From positions 1-58,450 of the forward strand of contig JAERRO010000017.1 in assembly GCA_016735395.1 (NCBI GenBank): a DNA stretch of 58,450 nucleotides, given 5' to 3'. How positions within the stretch are numbered: position 1 is the first letter of the stretch; each line of letters opens with the position of its first letter. The notes under the pieces are model-generated. The model had not been told where the DNA came from, ran no database searches, and saw nothing but the letters and a program-made list of their open reading frames with translations. This DNA is from Alphaproteobacteria bacterium. GTDB taxonomy: Bacteria; Pseudomonadota; Alphaproteobacteria; Rs-D84; JAERRO01. Below, piece by piece: positions 308 to 10,854 of this stretch. A program made the translations under genes and the position numbers.

Positions 308-1426
308 ATGAAATGGATTGAAACTACTTTAGGTGATGTGTGCGACAAAATTACAGATGGAACTCATTCAACCGTAATAGATGATCCTAATGGTGGAAAT
401 TATTTATTAAGTTGTAAGAACATAAAAAATGGTAGAGTTAGTTACTCTCAAAAAGACAGAACAATAAATCAAGAGACACTAGAATTCTTAAAAAGGAGAA
501 CTTCTTTAAGTCAAAATGATGTGTTAGTTTCAAGTGTTGGAACTATCGGAGAAACGGCTTATATAAAAGAAGAAAATCCTATTTATGATTTTCAACGAAG
601 TGTAGCTATCTTAAAAGGAAATCCAGACGAAATAAATTATTTATTTTTATATTATACTATGAGAGTTAATAAAACTATTTTAAAAAGTTTATCTGATGGT
701 GCAGTTCAAAAATGCTTATTTTTAAAAGACTTTAGAAGATTTAAAATACGGGTGCCGGAGAGGTTGGAGGATCAAGAGAAGATAGCACAAGTATTAAGTT
801 CTCTAGACTCCAAGATAGAACTATTACAGGAGCAGAACAAAACTCTAGAAGAATTATCTCAGGCTATATTTAAAAACACATTCTCCTCCCCTCACCCCTC
901 CTGGAAAATCAATAGGCTCGGCGACGTACTCAAAATATCATATGGAAAAACTCTACCTACCAATTGTTTCTTAGATAATGGTTATCCAGTATTTGGAGGT
1001 AATGGACAAATAGGCTGGTATAGTTCTTTTTTATATGAATTTCCACAGGTTCTAATTTCATGTAGAGGAGCTGCCTCAGGAAAAGTAAATATTTCTGCGA
1101 AAAAATCCTTTATAACTAATAATTCTTTAGTGCTTGATTTTAGAGAAAGCGCGTTAGATTATCCATTTTTAAGATCTTGGGCTACTTATAATAATTTTTC
1201 ATCTTTTGTATCTGGTTCTGCTCAACCTCAAATAACAATAGAGAGTCTATCTAGCTGTGAAATTGTAGTCCCAGACGATAAGACTATGGAGAGGTTCAAC
1301 TTGCAAGTGGAACCGATGTTTGATAAGATACTATTGAATAGCGAGCAGATAGGCACATTAGAAGCAACTAGAGATAGTTTATTACCAAAGCTAATGTCTG
1401 GAAAACTAGAACTAAAGGACTGTTAA
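308..1426 (+). CDS. hsdS: Type I restriction-modification specificity subunit
   Basis: 372 aa. Two variable target-recognition halves are separated by a conserved helical spacer (RLEDQEKIAQVLSSLDSKIELLQEQNKTLEELSQAIF). A second spacer lies at the C-terminus (TLEATRDSLLPKLMSGKLEL). The gene abuts hsdR (stop 1426, start 1428). Confidence 0.85.
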   Translation: MKWIETTLGDVCDKITDGTHSTVIDDPNGGNYLLSCKNIKNGRVSYSQKDRTINQETLEFLKRRTSLSQNDVLVSSVGTIGETAYIKEENPIYDFQRSVAILKGNPDEINYLFLYYTMRVNKTILKSLSDGAVQKCLFLKDFRRFKIRVPERLEDQEKIAQVLSSLDSKIELLQEQNKTLEELSQAIFKNTFSSPHPSWKINRLGDVLKISYGKTLPTNCFLDNGYPVFGGNGQIGWYSSFLYEFPQVLISCRGAASGKVNISAKKSFITNNSLVLDFRESALDYPFLRSWATYNNFSSFVSGSAQPQITIESLSSCEIVVPDDKTMERFNLQVEPMFDKILLNSEQIGTLEATRDSLLPKLMSGKLELKDC

Positions 1427-1427
1427 A

Positions 1428-4400
1428 ATGACAAAGTTTAAAAACCCGTTTACAGAGCAACTAATAGAAGATAGAGCTATTGAGCTATTTCAAGAGCAAG
1501 GCTATGAGTATTTGTGCGGAGATAAGATAAACCCTAATTCAAACGGAGATAGCTTAAGAAAAGATTTTGATATAGCCTATTACTTGCCGATTTTGAGAGA
1601 CTGTCTTTCTAGAATTAACGACTCTATTCCTAGCGACATTATAGAAGAAGCGATTACTGAAATAATAAAACCTAAATATACTAGCCTAATAGAAGAAAAT
1701 AAGCGAGTGTTTCAACTGATTACAGAGGGAGTAAAAGTCCCATACAAAGACAAAACCTATACAGTAAAAATCATAGATTTTAACAATGTTGATAATAATT
1801 CTTTTGTGGTATCTAACCAACTGATATTGAAAGAGCATAACAATCATAGAAGACCCGATGTATTAATCTACTTAAACGGACTTCCGATTTCTATGATAGA
1901 ATTTAAAAATCCGGCTAATGAACATGCCGACTTACAAGGTGCTTTTAGACAATTAGAAACCTATAAGCGAGAATTTCCACAGGCATTCTATTTTAATCAA
2001 ATCAACATTATTTCTGACGGTTATTTCTCTAGGGTCGGGTCAATATCATCTGGCTATGATAGATTTAACCCTTGGAGGGCGGAAGATAGCTATGACCTAA
2101 AATTTGAAATAGAAGATATTATCAAAGATCTATTCAAAAAAGAAAAACTATTAAATTATATAAAAAACTTTATAACCTTTGTTAATTTCTCCGGAAAAAA
2201 CATTAAGATTAGTGCAGGTTATCATCAAGTGCGAGGGGTTAACAACTCTCTAGTCGCGATAAAGAAGGCTATTGGTGTAGATAGAAAAGGTGGGATAGTA
2301 TGGCATTCTACAGGTTCCGGAAAGTCATTTTCTATGATGTTCCTAGCAGGATTGATTGAGAAAGACATAGATCTTAAAAACCCTACAATTCTTGTTATCA
2401 CAGATAGAATAGCTCTAGATAGTCAGTTGTATAAGACCTTTTCTAAAGGCAAAATGATTTTGGCATCTACCCCGGTGAGTATTGAAAAGTCTAGCGAATT
2501 AAAAACTAAACTAGAAGGAATACAATCAGGTGGAATATATTTTTCTACATTACAAAAATTCGGTATTAAGAAGAAAATCAAAAATGAACTATCGTTTCAA
2601 GAGTTGTCTTCTAGAGACAACATCATAATCATAGTAGACGAAGCTCACAGATCACACAATGGAATCGAAGATGGTTCTGCTAGATATTTAAGAGATGCTT
2701 TTCCAAATGCAACATTCATAGGTTTTACGGGGACTCCTATTGAAAAAGGTCATAACGACACAAGAGCTATTTTCGGCGAGGATAATGATATTTACGATAT
2801 GAGACAGTCTATATTAGACGGAGCCACAGTTCCTATTCATTACGAAGCTAGATTAGCTCAAGTAAAATTAAACACCGAAAAGGTTGAAGAAATAAATAAA
2901 CTGTTCGAAACAATAGAAGATAAAACAGACATTGAATATGCAGAAAATCTAAAGAGTAGACATGCTACTTTGGAGGCAATATTAGGTAGTAGGCAAAGGC
3001 TAGAATTATTAGCTAGCGATATTACAAAGCACTTTTCACTTAGAAAAGAAGCACTACCATTCTCTAAAGCTATGATCGTTTGTTCTACTAGAAATATCGC
3101 AGTAAAATTATACGACCAGTTAATAACCCTAAATCCTAGCTGGCATAACGACGACATTAATGAGGGAAGAATTAAAGTTGTACTATCTTCTAGTGCTACA
3201 GATACAGAAAATCTATCAAAACATAAGACATCTAATGATGATAAAAAAATTATAGCAAGCAGGATAGAAACTGAAAATGACGAATTGGATTTTATTATAG
3301 TTTGTGATATGTGGTTAACTGGATTTGATGCCCCACCAGTAAACACTATGTATTTTGACAAGCTATTAAAGGAACATAATCTTATTCAAGCCATAGCACG
3401 AGCAAATAGAGTTTATAAAGAAAAGCCAGACGGATTAATTGTTGACTATATAGGAATCCTAAGATACCTCAAAGAGGCATTAAAGATATACTCCCCTAAA
3501 GATAGAGAATATATTGGACAAGATATACGCGACGATGCTGTAAATACTATGATGACGAAAACATCTATAATAGAAGATCTTATCTTCGGATTTAATTATA
3601 AATCAGACCTTGAGAAAGCCTATAAAAATGACGATAGACAAATCTTAATAAAACTAGAAATCGACCTGTTTAATTTCATTACGAATCATAACGATAAAGA
3701 AATATTAACAAAATTTATAAAATTTACTAACGACTTACAAAAGGCATATAGTTTATGTGCTACTACAGAAGAAGCCGAAGGTATAAGATATGACTTAGTC
3801 TTTTTTGGAGCGGTAAAGGATCTACTCGTAAAAAACACCAATATATCTAATGAGAAGAAACTAAAACTAGAAGATATCAACACTCAAATAGGCCAACTAG
3901 TTTCACAATCTGTCGAAGGTGTTCAAATCATCGACCTGCTAGAACTCTCTAGTATGGATAGAAATAAGATAGATATTTTTTCTAAGGAATTTCTAGATGA
4001 AGTAAGACTATGTAAAAATCAAAATACAGCAGCAGAAATATTAAAAAAGCTTTTAAACGATGAAATACAATCGCGAGAAAAAACTAATATCATAGAGGGT
4101 AAAAACTTTAGAGATAGGTTAAACGATATAATTAAAAAATATCACGACAACCAAATAGACTCTACCCAAATGACCGAAGCCCTCATCTCTATAAGTAAAT
4201 TTATACAAGATTATGATAAAAAGAAAAATTCATTAGGACTAGATGAAGAAGAAATAGCTTTTTATACTGCATTATCAGATAATAAAAGTGCAGTAGATAT
4301 TATGGGAGACAAAAAACTAAAAGAGCTTACAAAGTCATTAGTATTTAGATGTAAAAAATCTATAAATTTCAATTTTTTAGAAAAAGAAGATGTTAGAGCA

Positions 4401-4523
4401 AAGTTACGATTTGAAGTAAAAAAGCTCTTGAGAGAATTTGGATATCCACCAGATATGGAAAAATTAGCAATCGATAATGTAGTCAAACAAAGTATGATTA
4501 TAGGACAAAATATAATATTATAG
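1428..4523 (+). CDS. hsdR: Type I restriction enzyme R subunit
   Basis: 1031 aa. N-terminal PD-(D/E)xK nuclease motif RRPDVLIYLNGLPISMIEFKNP. SF2 ATPase Walker A HSTGSGKSFSM, DEAH box IIIVDEAHRSH and motif VI QAIARANRV. Confidence 0.9.
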   Translation: MTKFKNPFTEQLIEDRAIELFQEQGYEYLCGDKINPNSNGDSLRKDFDIAYYLPILRDCLSRINDSIPSDIIEEAITEIIKPKYTSLIEENKRVFQLITEGVKVPYKDKTYTVKIIDFNNVDNNSFVVSNQLILKEHNNHRRPDVLIYLNGLPISMIEFKNPANEHADLQGAFRQLETYKREFPQAFYFNQINIISDGYFSRVGSISSGYDRFNPWRAEDSYDLKFEIEDIIKDLFKKEKLLNYIKNFITFVNFSGKNIKISAGYHQVRGVNNSLVAIKKAIGVDRKGGIVWHSTGSGKSFSMMFLAGLIEKDIDLKNPTILVITDRIALDSQLYKTFSKGKMILASTPVSIEKSSELKTKLEGIQSGGIYFSTLQKFGIKKKIKNELSFQELSSRDNIIIIVDEAHRSHNGIEDGSARYLRDAFPNATFIGFTGTPIEKGHNDTRAIFGEDNDIYDMRQSILDGATVPIHYEARLAQVKLNTEKVEEINKLFETIEDKTDIEYAENLKSRHATLEAILGSRQRLELLASDITKHFSLRKEALPFSKAMIVCSTRNIAVKLYDQLITLNPSWHNDDINEGRIKVVLSSSATDTENLSKHKTSNDDKKIIASRIETENDELDFIIVCDMWLTGFDAPPVNTMYFDKLLKEHNLIQAIARANRVYKEKPDGLIVDYIGILRYLKEALKIYSPKDREYIGQDIRDDAVNTMMTKTSIIEDLIFGFNYKSDLEKAYKNDDRQILIKLEIDLFNFITNHNDKEILTKFIKFTNDLQKAYSLCATTEEAEGIRYDLVFFGAVKDLLVKNTNISNEKKLKLEDINTQIGQLVSQSVEGVQIIDLLELSSMDRNKIDIFSKEFLDEVRLCKNQNTAAEILKKLLNDEIQSREKTNIIEGKNFRDRLNDIIKKYHDNQIDSTQMTEALISISKFIQDYDKKKNSLGLDEEEIAFYTALSDNKSAVDIMGDKKLKELTKSLVFRCKKSINFNFLEKEDVRAKLRFEVKKLLREFGYPPDMEKLAIDNVVKQSMIIGQNIIL

Positions 4524-4627: not shown

Positions 4628-5149
4628 ATGAAAATTTTTGAAATCGCGAGTTATTTTATTAAACTAGCTAAAGATCAAAACGATTTTATGTCTAATATGA
4701 AGTTGCAGAAACTATGCTACTATGCACAAGGATTAAATTTAGTTAAAAATAAGACCACACTATTTGACGACAATATTGAAGCCTGGTATCACGGTCCTGT
4801 AATAAGAACATTATATGATAAATACAAGCAACACAGAGCTAGTAATATTACTGAAGAAGATATAAACTATACTTTAATCAATAACGATGATAAAAGTATT
4901 ATTAAAGAAACTCACGATAAATTTTCAGGATTTTCTGCTTGGAAGTTAAGAATGATGAGCCACGACGAGACACCTTGGAGTAAAAATTATGAAGAGGGAC
5001 TAAATAATATTATTTCTACGGATGATATATCTAACTTTTTTGCCGATGTAATGTCTAGCGAAGAGACTGGAGCCGATATAAAAAAGAAAATCTCTGACAA
5101 AATTATTAGAGAGAATAGTGAGGCTTTTAAAATATTAGCCGATAAATAA
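4628..5149 (+). CDS. Panacea/DUF4065 domain protein (SocA/GepA/PanA-type antitoxin-like)
   Basis: MKLQKLCYYAQGLNLVKNKTTLFDDNIEAWYHGPVIRTLYDKYK matches the hallmark DUF4065 core (KLqKLlYyaq...F.AW.yGPV...Y..yk). A TTGACT-N17-TATCTT promoter-like element lies upstream. Confidence 0.75.
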   Translation: MKIFEIASYFIKLAKDQNDFMSNMKLQKLCYYAQGLNLVKNKTTLFDDNIEAWYHGPVIRTLYDKYKQHRASNITEEDINYTLINNDDKSIIKETHDKFSGFSAWKLRMMSHDETPWSKNYEEGLNNIISTDDISNFFADVMSSEETGADIKKKISDKIIRENSEAFKILADK

Positions 5150-5444: not shown

Positions 5445-5900
5445 TTATTCTTCGTCCGTCTTCCCTATATTATTACTACGATTTATGAGGCGGATCTGTT
5501 TAAAGGAATTTATAAATTCTTCTTGAACTTCGTTGTATTTTTCTAAAGACGAGGTCTCTATTTTATTCCGTGCGATAGAGTTTTCTTGTTTATCTTTCAG
5601 ATCGTATATCTCGTATTTGTAAGAATAGATTTTGTCTTCATTATTTATATTATATTTTCTCTTGTAGAACCTCTCTACTTTAGAGAATTTTCCATTCAAT
5701 TTTGTCCGCACCTTTATCTCCGTTTTTCCGGCGGTCTCGTCCCCTAGACTTCTTATCTTGAGTATGTGATAACAATCTTTCATTATCTTTTCGTCTACTT
5801 GACACGGTAGAGTTATACCTAATCCAGCTTTCAATTGCCACGGAAATATCGCCAATAAAAATAGAAAGATATTTATAGATATGAAACGATTTTTTACCAT
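5445..5900 (-). CDS. Hypothetical secreted protein (signal peptide)
   Basis: 151 aa. N-terminal hydrophobic signal MVKNRFISINIFLFLLAIFPWQLKA. Preceded by an AGGAG-like RBS (aaaggagattcgcatATG on the minus strand) and by promoter module R2a. No recognisable domain. Confidence 0.5.
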   Translation of the reverse strand: MVKNRFISINIFLFLLAIFPWQLKAGLGITLPCQVDEKIMKDCYHILKIRSLGDETAGKTEIKVRTKLNGKFSKVERFYKRKYNINNEDKIYSYKYEIYDLKDKQENSIARNKIETSSLEKYNEVQEEFINSFKQIRLINRSNNIGKTDEE

Positions 5901-5946: not shown

Positions 5947-5981
5947 GAAAAACAAGTTTTTTTTAATAAACTTTCAAAATT
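5947..5981 (-). promoter_or_regulatory. Repeat R2 copy a: duplicated promoter module upstream of 5445..5900
   Basis: gaaaaacaagttttttttaataaactttcaaaatt is near-identical to 7066..7102. On the minus strand, TTGTTT-N17-TATATA follows. Confidence 0.55.
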
Positions 5982-6077: not shown

Positions 6078-6527
6078 TTATTCCAGCCACCTTTCTATGT
6101 TATTTTTAATACAACTATATACTTCTTGGCTATTATCACCAGTAGGATCATATGCTTTTATATCGCTTCCTTTTGGAAATGGGTCAGCTCCTTTGTGAGC
6201 TGGTGTTCCATCACTATCACTATTTTTTAAATTATGAATATAAATTCCTATTATTTTTTTATTTGAATCAATCGCAGACATTATTTCATAATTTATCCAC
6301 CTCCTACCGGCTGTCTCTGCACCGATTAAGACGACAACACAGCTTCTACCCTTCATTTGAGAATCGATCCAGTTTTGAATACTAGTGTTTCCGCCTCTTT
6401 TTATTTCTTCCCAGTCATTATCTGAAGTTGTAGAATTGCCCTCTACGACCCCCATATTTCTGACTTGAGATGCTCTCCAGGCATCATTTTCATGGTGAAA
6501 ACTATAAAAAACTTGTCTTTTAACCAT
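6078..6527 (-). CDS. TIR-like domain protein (DUF1863 / ThsB-type)
   Basis: 149 aa. KRQVFYSFHHENDAWRASQVRNMG...SCVVVLIGAETAGRRWINYEIMSAI...IIGIYIHNLKN is the characteristic DUF1863/ThsB-like TIR pattern, including the conserved Glu of W..YEI. Its start overlaps the upstream ORF's stop by 8 nt (ATGGTTAA). Confidence 0.75.
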   Translation of the reverse strand: MVKRQVFYSFHHENDAWRASQVRNMGVVEGNSTTSDNDWEEIKRGGNTSIQNWIDSQMKGRSCVVVLIGAETAGRRWINYEIMSAIDSNKKIIGIYIHNLKNSDSDGTPAHKGADPFPKGSDIKAYDPTGDNSQEVYSCIKNNIERWLE

Positions 6528-6996
6528 TATAAACTCCTTTAGTTATGGTATGTTGTTCTTGTTTAACGGGTGTAGTATAATGTAAATACAAGCTTCCTAG
6601 TATTGACAATATAATAAGTGTTAAATATAATGGAACTAAAGTCTTCGAAAAAATAAAAGATATAATACACTTTACTTTATATCTGTTAGGATTTAGATCG
6701 TATAAATTCTCATCACTTTTATTATCTATAATATCATTATACATCTTTCTATATTTTGTTTCTGTTTGTAGAAAAAAACCGTCTAAACACCAAAACATAA
6801 TTAAAATTACTGAGAGAATAAATAATGATAATTCTAACGATATAATTCTAGATAGATAAATACAAGTAACTAATACGGCTATCGCCCAGCCTTTTATAAT
6901 AAATGAGTTATGATTCAATCTCGTTATACAATTTTGAATCAAATCAATTTCTTTATGTAGAACTATAATATTCTTTCTACTTCTTTCTTTACTCAA
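6520..6996 (-). CDS. Small multi-pass membrane protein, first gene of the TM+TIR operon
   Basis: 158 aa. N-terminal helix, then TM segments FIIKGWAIAVLVTCIYLSRII and LSLFILSVILIMFWCLDGFFL. A polar loop follows (QTETKYRKMYNDIIDNKSDENLYDLNPNRYK), then hydrophobic IISFIFSKTLVPLYLTLIILSILGSLYL. No soluble domain was recognised. Confidence 0.6.
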   Translation of the reverse strand: MSKERSRKNIIVLHKEIDLIQNCITRLNHNSFIIKGWAIAVLVTCIYLSRIISLELSLFILSVILIMFWCLDGFFLQTETKYRKMYNDIIDNKSDENLYDLNPNRYKVKCIISFIFSKTLVPLYLTLIILSILGSLYLHYTTPVKQEQHTITKGVYNG

Positions 6997-7065
6997 ATTC
7001 TACCTTTTAAATATATCTAGTGAAAACACTAGAGCCGATACAACTTATGATATAGTATAAATATA

Positions 7066-7102
7066 GAAAAAAAACAAGTTTTTTTAATAAACTTTCAAAA
7101 TT
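7066..7102 (-). promoter_or_regulatory. Repeat R2 copy b: duplicated promoter module upstream of the TM+TIR operon
   Basis: gaaaaaaaacaagtttttttaataaactttcaaaatt. On the minus strand TTGTTT-N17-TATATC follows. A CTAGTG-aaaa-CACTAG palindrome (7016..7031) lies in the leader. Confidence 0.55.
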
Positions 7103-7163: not shown

Positions 7164-7324
7164 AAAAAGCAGAAAATATATTTTCTAGCGAGACAAGATT
7201 ATTGTTTTTTTGATTACGAGACAGTTTCACACAGTAAACTTTAAAACAGGTCCTTTCCGCAACCGAATCTAGACTTATCTCCGTCTATAATTTCAACTAT
7301 AGTAGGATAAGTGTCATCTGCCAT
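7164..7324. repeat. Repeat R1 copy b (covers the 3' end of 7241..7912 plus a frameshifted remnant of the plus-strand frame)
   Basis: See R1 copy a. The plus-strand remnant reads KAENIFSSETRLLFF* because of an extra T. Confidence 0.85.
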
Positions 7325-7912
7325 AGTATCTTGACATTTTCCGGCAAATAATTTTATTATCATATCACTCCCTCTAATTTTCATAGTAGAGGTAAGTTTT
7401 TCTTGATCATTTACTATGTCTACGACGGTGTATATATCTTCTGTAGTCATGGTTTTAATTTTCAGGTTATTTTTACTACCTTTAGTATATTCTAGCACCC
7501 ATCCTGGTTCGTTACCTGTTGCTCTAAATGCTACACCGTTAAATTTGGCTTTATCCCATACAGTCTCTCTATAATTTTTAGAGCAATTTTCCCAGGCTCT
7601 TCTCCCGACAGCTACTTTCAGTGTCTCTTTATTATAGTTTATAGCTAGTTTGCCATCACTATAGAGATTTTCGTCTACCTCTATCCGTTTAGTCCCGTCT
7701 TTAGTAAAAAACCATTTACCGTTATTATCGACAACGACAACGACTTTCCCGTAATGATTACAGTTAAAAACATTAACTTCTCTTTCGGATGTTAAATTTT
7801 CATCTTCTTTTATATAACTAGAGATAATAAAAGACAGAGAGATAGCTATTAAGAGACCTGCGAAAATCATAAATATTTTTATATAGTTGTGAGAAAAAAA
7901 GTTGTTCTTCAT
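7241..7912 (-). CDS. Hypothetical membrane-anchored/secreted protein (GNEPGW motif, COG3650-like C-terminal half)
   Basis: 223 aa. N-terminal TM/signal IKIFMIFAGLLIAISLSFIISS. FRATGNEPGWVLEY resembles the GNEPFW motif of COG3650-type lipoproteins. Confidence 0.45.
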   Translation of the reverse strand: MKNNFFSHNYIKIFMIFAGLLIAISLSFIISSYIKEDENLTSEREVNVFNCNHYGKVVVVVDNNGKWFFTKDGTKRIEVDENLYSDGKLAINYNKETLKVAVGRRAWENCSKNYRETVWDKAKFNGVAFRATGNEPGWVLEYTKGSKNNLKIKTMTTEDIYTVVDIVNDQEKLTSTMKIRGSDMIIKLFAGKCQDTMADDTYPTIVEIIDGDKSRFGCGKDLF

Positions 7913-8053: not shown

Positions 8054-9346
8054 ATGTCTACCCCCATAGATAACATAGATAAAACTGATAATTTCATAGA
8101 AGCATTTAGGTGTATAGAAGATGGTGGTTCTAACCTACTTATCTTGGGTTCTGCTGGCAGTGGCAAGTCTACATTTATAGATTATCTCCGCAATAATACA
8201 ACTAGACAGATAGCTTGTGTTGCTCCTACGGCGATATCAGCGATAAACATTGAAGGTTCAACTATACATTCGTTTTTTGGCTTACCTCCAAAAGACTTTT
8301 TCCCTACTAGAGATCTAGTAATTTCGAGAAAGTTAAAGACTGTCCTACGAAATTTGGAAGTTTTAATTATAGACGAAATATCTATGGTCCGCCCGGATAT
8401 GTTAGATGCTATCAACAGTATGTGTCAAGAAAGCAGAGGGTCATTATCGCCGTTCGGAGGAATACAGTTAATTTTAATAGGCGATTTATATCAACTACCG
8501 CCAATAATTCGCAGAGATGTAGAGCCGTTATTTTTAAGAAAATACGGTTATTCATCTCCGTATTTTTTTGACTCTGAAAGTTATATTACAGGTAATTTCA
8601 GGAAGATATTTTTTGATAAAATCTACAGACAAAAGGACTTGACATTTGTAAAGAATCTTAACAGGATGCGAGATCTGAACGATTTAGAGGATGTCATAGG
8701 ATATTTCAATCAGAGGATAAGAGGATCGGAAGAGATTGATAAATTGAGGGAGCCAGTTCTAATGACTCCGTACAGAAGCATTGCAGAAGAGATTAACAAG
8801 AGGAAGTTATCGGAGATTCTAGAGATAGAAAGAACTTATAGCGGTAGTACGACGGGGACATTTATGAAGTTCAAGGATTTTCCCTCTCCCAAGGAGTTAG
8901 TACTAAAGAACGGTTGTCGTATAATGTTTAACAAAAACAATCGTCCGTTGTGGTCGAACGGGGATACAGGAACTATATTATCTATGTCGGACGATAGAAT
9001 AACGGTTGTCTTGAACTCAAGTCAAAAGTTAGTAGATGTCCACAAAGAAAAATGGCAACATATAAGATATACTTACAATATGGAAACTCAAAAAATAGTA
9101 GAAGAAATCACAGGAGAGTATGAGCAGTTTCCTTTACAATTGGGCTATGGCATAACCATACACAAATCACAGGGTAAAACTCTAGAGAACATCGTCATAG
9201 ATCTAGGCAGGGGGACATTCGCCCACGGTCAGTTATATGTAGCTTTTAGTAGAGCAAAGCATCTAGAAGATATATATCTAAAGAGAGCTATCAAGATTAC
9301 AGACATCATAGTCGACACAAGAATTATAGAATTTTATAAAAATTAA
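8054..9346 (+). CDS. PIF1/RecD-like SF1B DNA helicase
   Basis: 430 aa. Walker A LILGSAGSGKST, Walker B LIIDEISMV, LILIGDLYQLPPI, GYGITIHKSQGKTLENIVIDL and LYVAFSRAKHLEDIYL. AGGAG RBS at 8044..8048. TTGACA at 8009..8014 with TACTAT at 8031..8036. Confidence 0.8.
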   Translation: MSTPIDNIDKTDNFIEAFRCIEDGGSNLLILGSAGSGKSTFIDYLRNNTTRQIACVAPTAISAINIEGSTIHSFFGLPPKDFFPTRDLVISRKLKTVLRNLEVLIIDEISMVRPDMLDAINSMCQESRGSLSPFGGIQLILIGDLYQLPPIIRRDVEPLFLRKYGYSSPYFFDSESYITGNFRKIFFDKIYRQKDLTFVKNLNRMRDLNDLEDVIGYFNQRIRGSEEIDKLREPVLMTPYRSIAEEINKRKLSEILEIERTYSGSTTGTFMKFKDFPSPKELVLKNGCRIMFNKNNRPLWSNGDTGTILSMSDDRITVVLNSSQKLVDVHKEKWQHIRYTYNMETQKIVEEITGEYEQFPLQLGYGITIHKSQGKTLENIVIDLGRGTFAHGQLYVAFSRAKHLEDIYLKRAIKITDIIVDTRIIEFYKN

Positions 9347-9522: not shown

Positions 9523-10854
9523 ATGGTTTTAACCAAAGCATTACAGTTGCGACGAGGCACTGATGAATCGCATAACGGCTTTACGGGTCTAGAAGGCGAG
9601 ATAACAATGAACACAACTACAAACACGGCACATATACACGATGGCGAAACTGCTACTGGTCATAGTCTAGCGAGGGCAGACTTGGAGAACATATCTGATA
9701 CAGTTTTGACTAATAAGATATTCTCAACGACGACTAAAGAGCATTTTACCGCGGACTTTTTCACAACTAGAGGATTACTCAAAACAGATATGTCTAATAT
9801 AGATATTGATTCTGCGATAAACAATTTGCAAGTGGCTAGAGTCGATCTATCGAATGTTAGCTCCGAGGATATTACGGCATCTAATATAGCAAAAAAAGAT
9901 CTATCTAATATCAGCAACGAAGACTTTTCTAATATAGGTCTAGTAAAAAATGATTTATTATCAACTACAGATACTGCGGGTCTTATTAAACTAGCAACAG
10001 AAAACGACTTCCCCACAAGTAATAATACGGCTATAACCCCGTCCCTATTAAACGATCTTTATCCGACAAGTATAAAAAGTTTACCACTTAACTATATCCG
10101 CGGTTTAATTTCTAGTATTAACGAGGACGAGGAAATAATAATTACATCTGGTTATTCAAGAGATGACGGAGACAACATAAATATAAAGCTACCGTCGTCA
10201 ATAATGAAACTAGGCTTAAAAACATTTTCCATAGGACACGGAGGCGGAGTTTTATCTATTGATCCAGCGACTATAGAAGATAATACTACTATCCATCTAT
10301 TTATAGTATCCAATCAAGATTGCACTAAAATAGACATAATAGCCGACACATCATTAACTGGAGACAATATATCTACAAACCAAACTATTATAGATAATAA
10401 TCTATTATATAAACGAAGAATTTCCTCTTGCCTATTGATAACGGCTACAGAGTACTTAAAATATACAGGATCAGAACTATCGGGCGGAGGTATCGGATAT
10501 TTTCTATCTAAACCGAGTATAATACTATATTCTACAAATTATTCAGACATTGTTAATGGGCTAGATATGTATTGTTCTATCCCTGAAGGTATAACTACAA
10601 AGATATATATAGATATATACTATGTGACACCTTCAAATAATAATTATATAATACTATATAAAAATCATTACAACCAGCAAGAAGGAACCCTCTTGTATAA
10701 TTATTGTTCGAGTTCATCTAGCAACAGTAAATCTTTAGTTATAATATCTAACACACAAAAAATATTATATATAAGCACACATTATATCAACGGAAGTTCT
10801 CTATATTATCATTTTAATGTTTCAACGGCATATTTTGAAGATGCTAGAGTATAA
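9523..10854 (+). CDS. Phage tail-fibre-like protein (Mtd_N / hyaluronidase-type N-terminal domain)
   Basis: The N-terminus LQLRRGTDESHNGFTGLEGEITMNTTTNTAHIHDGETATGHSLARAD matches the Mtd-N/tail-fibre pattern (L.lRRGT......f.g..GE...dTdt....vhDG.t.GG..la). It also has repeated (D/T)(L/M)SN(I/V) units and TAGLIKLATENDF...AITPSLL. Confidence 0.7.
   Translation: MVLTKALQLRRGTDESHNGFTGLEGEITMNTTTNTAHIHDGETATGHSLARADLENISDTVLTNKIFSTTTKEHFTADFFTTRGLLKTDMSNIDIDSAINNLQVARVDLSNVSSEDITASNIAKKDLSNISNEDFSNIGLVKNDLLSTTDTAGLIKLATENDFPTSNNTAITPSLLNDLYPTSIKSLPLNYIRGLISSINEDEEIIITSGYSRDDGDNINIKLPSSIMKLGLKTFSIGHGGGVLSIDPATIEDNTTIHLFIVSNQDCTKIDIIADTSLTGDNISTNQTIIDNNLLYKRRISSCLLITATEYLKYTGSELSGGGIGYFLSKPSIILYSTNYSDIVNGLDMYCSIPEGITTKIYIDIYYVTPSNNNYIILYKNHYNQQEGTLLYNYCSSSSSNSKSLVIISNTQKILYISTHYINGSSLYYHFNVSTAYFEDARV

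Follow-up and report, generated by a model that had tools for sequence, protein, structure and literature searches.

A membrane protein and TIR protein gene pair in an alphaproteobacterial contig is a probable type V Thoeris anti-phage system

Two overlapping genes on the minus strand of contig JAERRO010000017.1 very probably encode a type V Thoeris anti-phage system, in which thsF, the gene of a small membrane protein, lies upstream of thsB, the gene of a TIR-domain protein, and appears to be translationally coupled to it. The contig belongs to an AT-rich alphaproteobacterial metagenome-assembled genome (MAG) with ~33% GC, and its whole 58,450-nt stretch is referred to here as the window. The assignment is built on how the two genes are arranged, on the homology of their products to the validated system, on the conservation of the catalytic Glu in ThsB and of the invariant residues in ThsF, and on the adjacency of ThsF and TIR genes. 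The original prediction, made from the sequence of the window, had described a pair that could not be placed in a described system and that lacked a known effector domain. Neither description holds. Both proteins match the PADLOC candidate PDC-M50; the membrane protein belongs to the ThsF family (PADLOC PDC-M50A) and is homologous to a validated ThsF; and the TIR protein falls in a ThsB clade listed as type V in Table S1 of the preprint that defined the type. That the membrane protein should belong to the family of a named system is what the prediction itself had said would overturn it, and its claim of novelty fails.

Thoeris types V to XI were defined by Yirmiya et al. in a December 2025 preprint (bioRxiv 10.64898/2025.12.03.692087). 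Type V consists of ThsB and ThsF, a protein with three membrane-spanning helices that is annotated as DUF2270, and two Bacillus type V systems, from B. thuringiensis DAR 81934 (hereafter Bt) and from Bacillus sp. 1NLA3E, protect B. subtilis from phage. The ThsB proteins of these two systems belong to two clades, and both produce the cyclic ADP-ribose (cADPR) isomer 3'cADPR upon infection. Cells that carry the Bt system are poisoned by 3'cADPR added to the medium, and Tad1, a sponge protein, lowers the defence of that system. In an AlphaFold3 (AF3) model, seven copies of ThsF form a homomeric ring in which basic pockets lie between the protomers (bioRxiv 10.64898/2025.12.03.692087).

We located the validated Bt operon, our locus L084, with the Table S1 sequence of its ThsB (IMG 2624526259) as the query, to which our protein P0121 is 100% identical. 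Directly downstream of Bt thsB lies an open reading frame (ORF) of 141 aa (L084:3773-4198), which is the sole neighbour with transmembrane (TM) segments, three in number; the 271-aa protein encoded upstream has none. Taking this ORF as ThsF agrees with the consecutive IMG gene identifier given for the effector in Table S2. BLASTP aligned the window protein to it over 123 aa (E 4e-21, 30% identity, 59% positives), and the motifs IQxxIxRxxxNSFxxKGW and FWxLDGFFLxxExxxRKxY occur in both. A profile built from relatives of the window protein only matched Bt ThsF with 126.6 bits (E 3.9e-41). On the strength of these BLASTP and profile matches, the window membrane protein is therefore assigned to ThsF. 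The best PADLOC match of both proteins is the same model, PDC-M50A (PDLC04686), with E-values of 9.6e-36 for the window protein and 1.8e-48 for Bt ThsF. The organism names of the loci carrying relatives were also compared with the preprint's supplements, which use IMG identifiers, and no match was found among the rows listed.

As had been predicted, thsF encodes a 158-aa polytopic membrane protein. Its product has three hydrophobic segments by hydropathy, and an AlphaFold2 (AF2) monomer model (pLDDT 89.2) places helices at residues 2-48, 54-91, 111-115 and 120-156, so that by both methods it comprises three membrane-spanning helices without a globular domain. The model suggests that an N-terminal cytosolic helix (~2-34) leads into TM1 and that TM2 runs on into a second cytosolic helix (77-91), followed by a loop and TM3 (~118-145). 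The longest soluble loop had been put at ~35 aa. The segment quoted for it, LQTETKYRK...NPNRYK, corresponds to residues 76-107; part of this segment is helical and continues TM2. In the family alignment the window protein keeps all 11 of the 11 invariant ThsF columns, the basic residues K15, R26, K35 and R83 are invariant across the family, and the BLASTP alignment shows K/R15, R26, K35, R83 and K84 to be common to the window and Bt proteins. The closest ThsF homologue is 55% identical to the window protein.

Family searches returned little else. Pfam and NCBIfam gave sub-threshold noise only for the thsF product (DUF3899, DUF3487, UpsB), and Pfam searches of 44 and then 10 ThsF relatives found no DUF2270, SLATT or other consistent family; eight of the relatives had weak matches to DUF3278. 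A solved relative of ThsF was found neither by PDB sequence profile nor by Foldseek with the AF2 model (best E 0.73). The thsF/thsB pair had no Pfam match at E ≤ 1 to SIR2, SLOG, Macro, STING, SAVED or SLATT, and no STAND gene adjoins it. In these respects the original prediction was correct, having noted that the domains known to read TIR-derived signals and an NLR/STAND partner were both missing.

The product of thsB matches Pfam PF08937, the ThsB_TIR family of the DUF1863 type (2.3e-27), as well as the PADLOC models ThsB PDLC00433 (6.4e-59) and PDC-M50B (1.4e-51), and it belongs to the short DUF1863-type clade represented by PDLC00433. Its best solved relative is 8wcf_A (3.2e-37), on which a literature search (8WCF) returned nothing relevant; the ThsB of B. 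cereus MSX-D12 (6lhy/9b7d) matches at ~1e-16, with 35% identity to 6lhy. E81 of the window protein (RRWINYEIMS) aligns to E85 of MSX-D12 ThsB (WVRYEIM; residue numbers counted by hand), so that the distal gene does encode a ThsB-type TIR protein retaining a catalytic-type Glu, as had been proposed. The full-length identity of the protein to TIR proteins labelled 'DUF2270 - Type V' in Table S1 (e.g., 2517867516 and 2518998441) is 42-43%.

The arrangement of the two genes supports a single operon. Reading from the sequence, the thsB ATG occupies 6527-6525 and the thsF TAA 6522-6520, and these positions bear out the expectation of two minus-strand ORFs that overlap by 8 nt, at ATGGTTAA. The overlap points to translational coupling. 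A Shine-Dalgarno motif for thsB, AAGGAG, is spaced 6 nt from its ATG, and AAAGG lies 6 nt 5' of the TTG start of thsF. No in-frame ATG or GTG was found 5' of the conserved N-terminal helix of ThsF, and in the family alignment the TTG start is consistent with the lengths of the homologues.

The association of ThsF with TIR genes extends well beyond the window. With clustering at 50%, the ThsF family comprises 5,203 representatives when the cut-off is E ≤ 1e-3 and 3,300 when it is E ≤ 1e-10, and a ThsF relative was found at 249 loci in GTDB species-representative genomes, whose hosts include Bacteroidota, Omnitrophota, Clostridia, Pasteurellaceae, Cyanobacteria, Planctomycetota and even Methanocorpusculum. 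We examined the best 80 of the 249 loci for TIR partners with iterated profiles seeded with the window ThsB and the Table S1 type V TIRs; divergent partners were confirmed by Pfam and PADLOC. A TIR gene lay within 200 nt of thsF on the same strand at 61 of the 80 loci, adjacent on the opposite strand at 3 and within 1.5 kb at a further 5, giving 69 of 80 loci with a TIR gene within 1.5 kb. The conserved co-occurrence that the original prediction had put forward as a check is thus present.

Neither the order of the genes nor the kind of TIR partner is fixed. With the first TIR profile alone, the TIR gene was upstream in 26 loci and downstream in 26, and no fewer than three ThsB clades are represented among the partners (window type, 21; Bt type, 18; 1NLA3E type, 24). 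The nearest ThsF relative had a ThsB of the same clade in 42 of 63 cases, against the 33% expected by chance, and those of the 80 loci whose ThsF is nearest to Bt ThsF (41% identity) have a window-type ThsB as partner. These data indicate that ThsF and ThsB are co-inherited to some degree, yet swap partners frequently. Since one effector family is combined with such varied TIR partners, a common diffusible ligand fits better than a fixed protein-protein interface.

Several points weigh against the type V assignment. The window ThsF is just 27-30% identical to validated ThsF, and the identity of the window ThsB to a type XI ThsB (44%) is much the same as that to the listed type V ThsBs; both validated type V ThsBs come from other clades (PDLC00430-like and 1NLA3E-like). 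About 11 of the 80 loci have no TIR gene within 1.5 kb of thsF. The experimental support for the type comes from two Bacillus systems only, described in a preprint, in which the 1NLA3E system makes 3'cADPR yet is not intoxicated by it, and a type V candidate from V. cholerae gave no defence in E. coli (bioRxiv 10.64898/2025.12.03.692087). The preprint's DUF2270 label (PF10028) was, moreover, not reproduced by hmmscan at E ≤ 1 for the window protein and 54 relatives. PF10028 was not matched by the validated Bt ThsF either (hmmscan, E ≤ 10), and because hmmscan misses this protein too, we regard the label as an annotation issue and not as evidence against membership. Bt ThsF gave a weak, full-length match to PF24838, the '8xMP, octameric membrane protein family' (E 0.012); a literature search on '8xMP' found nothing relevant. 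Apart from the Pfam DUF2270 label, every type V feature that can be examined in the window was found.

By analogy with the Bacillus systems, ThsB would be an NAD+-processing enzyme that stays idle until phage infection is sensed. Once activated, it would turn NAD+ into a cADPR isomer, most likely 3'cADPR, which we consider on balance the probable signal at the window locus. The signal would bind the small cytosolic part of ThsF, made up of the N-terminal helix and the helix after TM2, where the conserved basic residues K15, R26, K35, R83 and K84 form a putative site. ThsF, with its three TM helices, is predicted to assemble with copies of itself into a membrane ring, and binding of the ligand would open or disrupt the membrane, so that the infected cell stops growing and the phage cycle is aborted. 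Defence, infection-dependent 3'cADPR, toxicity of the ligand and the AF3 heptamer are all drawn from the Bacillus homologues in the preprint, and it is by comparison with these that the window locus may be active and that its signal and binding site are proposed. The suggestion that the membrane protein is a killer gated by the TIR product through a very small sensor agrees with the published type V model.

An alternative that we consider unlikely, without being negligible, keeps the type V architecture and changes the signal, which could be 2'cADPR, canonical cADPR, a His-ADPR-like compound or a new molecule; the ThsF subclade would be tuned to it, or a second input would be involved. The nearness of the window ThsB to a type XI ThsB (44% identity) lends weight to this alternative, given that the type XI TIRs gave none of the known signals, as does the lack of 3'cADPR toxicity for the 1NLA3E system. 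The clade matching in 42 of the 63 nearest ThsF pairs suggests some co-adaptation. A more specific form, slightly less likely again, is that the ThsB clade of the window, which it shares with type XI, makes a molecule other than 3'cADPR that is sensed by the divergent ThsF through its ~60 cytosolic residues. If this were true, a new signal-receptor pair would exist inside the type V architecture. However, 3'cADPR was made by both validated type V ThsBs although they belong to different clades, the related MSX-D12 ThsB is part of a type I system, whose signal is 3'cADPR, and the pairing of the closest Bt ThsF relatives with window-type ThsB argues for a shared ligand.

It is improbable that the locus is inactive or repurposed, whether as a decaying cassette or as a membrane protein and a TIR protein with a role outside defence. 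Such a view can draw on the host, apparently an uncultured low-GC alphaproteobacterium, on the TTG start of thsF, on the modest identity of the nearest ThsF homologue (55%) and on the orphan thsF genes found in housekeeping contexts (L012 and L047). Both ORFs are nevertheless intact, the 11 invariant ThsF columns and the catalytic Glu of ThsB are retained, the operon has a good Shine-Dalgarno sequence and a promoter-like element, and a type I restriction-modification (R-M) system adjoins it. Direct gating, the other route offered in the original prediction, in which ThsB would bind ThsF and release or activate it on infection, in the manner of a toxin-antitoxin or sensor-effector complex and with no diffusible messenger, is more improbable still: the tight coupling through the 8-nt overlap would favour co-assembly, ThsF exposes very little to the cytosol and 3'cADPR alone did not activate one type V system, but a common small ligand explains more easily how at least three very different ThsB clades can serve in either gene order, the catalytic Glu is kept in ThsB, and 3'cADPR supplied from outside poisons cells that have the Bt system, whose defence Tad1 lowers.

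Under the type V assignment, the window pair resembles the published systems in being a two-gene operon of ThsB and a three-TM effector (~140-160 aa) that matches the same PADLOC model, and its ThsB clade is itself listed as type V in Table S1. It differs in its gene order, thsF before thsB with the 8-nt overlap as against thsB before thsF in Bt, in a ThsB of the PDLC00433 clade, to which neither of the two validated ThsBs belongs, and in its host, an alphaproteobacterial AT-rich MAG. The adjacent window genes likewise match components A (9.6e-36) and B (1.4e-51) of PDC-M50 in PADLOC-DB v2, and PDC-M50B represents the same ThsB clade as that of the window. PDC entries are unpublished PADLOC candidates (PMC11811056). 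Unlike type V Thoeris, PDC-M50 is a candidate label with no mechanism attached, and a literature search for 'PDC-M50' found nothing; on the evidence assembled here, it corresponds to type V Thoeris.

Other Thoeris types share parts of this design. Type VII pairs ThsB with the SLATT protein ThsH and uses canonical cADPR; it too has a small membrane effector, one presumed to assemble into oligomers when the ligand binds, but its family, signal and predicted assembly (a filament as opposed to the ThsF ring) differ, and the window protein and 44 relatives gave no SLATT Pfam match at E ≤ 1. In type II, ThsB acts with a Macro-TM protein and His-ADPR, and a TIR signal again leads to a membrane-disrupting effector. 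There the Macro domain reads the signal, whereas ThsF has no Macro or other globular sensor; no Macro match was found, and the 158 aa of the window protein are nearly all helical TM or juxtamembrane in the AF2 model. Type I (ThsB with a SIR2-SLOG ThsA and 3'cADPR, as in MSX-D12) has a homologous ThsB and likely the same signal, with a soluble NADase as effector in place of a membrane protein. The neighbouring genes at 5445-5900 and 7241-7912 had no significant Pfam or PADLOC matches, so no SIR2-SLOG gene adjoins the pair. Types VII, II and I are excluded by the absence of these domains, and the domains required for a TIR-STAND or TIR-effector NADase system, readings that were likewise rejected, are not present either.

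What had looked like an unplaceable minimal TIR system is thus probably a recently named one, and the link between PDC-M50 and type V is useful for annotation. HMMER does not retrieve the DUF2270 label, with the consequence that many genomes will still show ThsF-type proteins as hypothetical. With the window locus, the range of type V Thoeris comes to include a low-GC alphaproteobacterial MAG, and ThsF is seen paired with a ThsB clade outside those validated experimentally for the type. The kind of system has already been described, and the novelty is modest, residing in the host, the ThsB clade and the recognition of PDC-M50 as type V Thoeris. ThsF ranks with the smallest known signal-gated effectors, which makes mapping of its ligand pocket worthwhile, a question not first raised by the window locus.

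Table 1. Features of the thsF-thsB locus and its neighbourhood (positions in the window).
Feature	Positions	Strand	Description and basis
hsdS	308-1426		type I R-M
hsdR	1428-4523		type I R-M
SocA/Panacea antitoxin-domain gene	4628-5149	+	directly after hsdR; Pfam
Repeat copy 2	5948-5981	-	33/34 nt, A/T-rich; downstream of thsB, upstream of gene 5445-5900; alignment
thsB	6078-6527	-	149 aa, ATG start; ORF list, Pfam, PADLOC, PDB matches
thsF/thsB overlap	6520-6527	-	ATGGTTAA, 8 nt; read directly from sequence
thsB Shine-Dalgarno	6534-6539	-	AAGGAG, inside thsF 3' end; read directly
thsF	6520-6996	-	158 aa, TTG start; ORF list, PADLOC, BLASTP, AF2, hydropathy
Hairpin	7016-7033	-	TCTAGTGTTTTCACTAGA, 7-bp stem; thsF 5' leader, between promoter-like repeat and TTG
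Repeat copy 1	7070-7102	-	33/34 nt, A/T-rich; upstream of thsF; repeat count and alignment

A direct repeat, AATTTTGAAAGTTTATT(A)AAAAAAACTTGTTTTT, occurs in exactly two copies in the 58-kb window, where none is expected by chance. Copy 1 likely supplies the UP element and the -35 (TTGTTT) of the operon promoter; a TATATC-like -10 lies ~17 nt downstream, and there is a weak sigma-70-like match at 7087-7060. The pair had been credited with a duplicated promoter module of its own. The element does occur twice, but its second copy lies past the end of thsB, ahead of the next gene; with one copy on either side of the cassette, the repeat brackets thsF-thsB and the operon promoter is not doubled. 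The bracketing repeat could be a shared promoter or UP element, or a footprint left when the cassette was inserted and the downstream gene's promoter was duplicated. The hairpin in the thsF leader could act as an operator or attenuator.

The defence-island context described in the original prediction was confirmed, with hsdS, hsdR and the SocA/Panacea gene all within ~1.5 kb. The 307 bases that precede hsdS show no hsdM. A small ORF at ~90-298 in frame 2 of the plus strand, just ahead of hsdS (…SSNIRQICFDNNSIIVYFHSGGVYKYINVSKSVFDQFINSISKGQFLDNVIK…), is KTSC-domain-like by eye. A toxin partner of the SocA/Panacea gene is not recognisable. The minus-strand gene at 5445-5900 encodes a protein with a hydrophobic, signal-peptide-like N-terminus (by eye) and no family match. 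On the other side of the cassette, the plus-strand gene at 8054-9346 encodes a PIF1/RecD-like helicase with weak PADLOC matches to typeIV_RecD and PDC-S68, and the plus-strand gene at 9523-10854 encodes a protein of 443 aa that carries Mtd_N, the N-terminal domain of a phage major tropism determinant. The helicase and Mtd_N pair is conserved in a sister MAG (L086), whose contig stops at the edge of the Thoeris cassette.

ThsB-ThsF pairs or ThsF homologues also occur on mobile elements. A tblastn search of plasmids with Bt ThsB returned B. cereus and Priestia matches that carry other effectors (SIR2, Macro), and among the plasmid matches ThsF was seen only on the C. botulinum phage-plasmid p6CSt (NZ_CP063819.1), where the ThsB-ThsF pair lies between two recombinase genes (L083:2501-3745). 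ThsF homologues or ThsB-ThsF pairs are likewise present on three ~14-kb phage-like elements of Vibrio cyclitrophicus (phage records PQ189363.1, PQ189372.1 and PQ189378.1).

About one in eight ThsF homologues has no TIR neighbour, and ThsF might also serve as a membrane effector for non-TIR sensors. No TIR gene lies within 1.5 kb of thsF in two Saprospiraceae MAGs (L012:5971-6432 and L047:2377-2841) or in L053. In the former two, thsF is flanked by a gene for dTDP-4-dehydrorhamnose epimerase and by one that resembles the reductase gene (by eye), a conserved, housekeeping-like position. In Methanocorpusculum (L006/L007), thsF has no TIR neighbour and adjoins the gene of a SIR2_2 protein of 823 aa with an AAA_15/OLD-like pair. 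A TIR neighbour is also missing in L023, L059 and L056, and the contexts of these loci and of L006/L007, taken jointly, include a convergently encoded nSTAND1-LRR protein, a WD40 protein of 962 aa, and a 5-hmdU DNA kinase accompanied by a ThyA-like gene and by an AAA_11/12-DUF2726 helicase. At four Saprospiraceae/Lewinellaceae loci (L024, L025, L027 and L028), a conserved protein of 322-326 aa with no Pfam or PADLOC match precedes ThsF, and in L024, L027 and L028 a ~730-aa protein with a TIR-like motif (by eye) is encoded one gene further upstream. This arrangement may represent a three-gene variant of the system.

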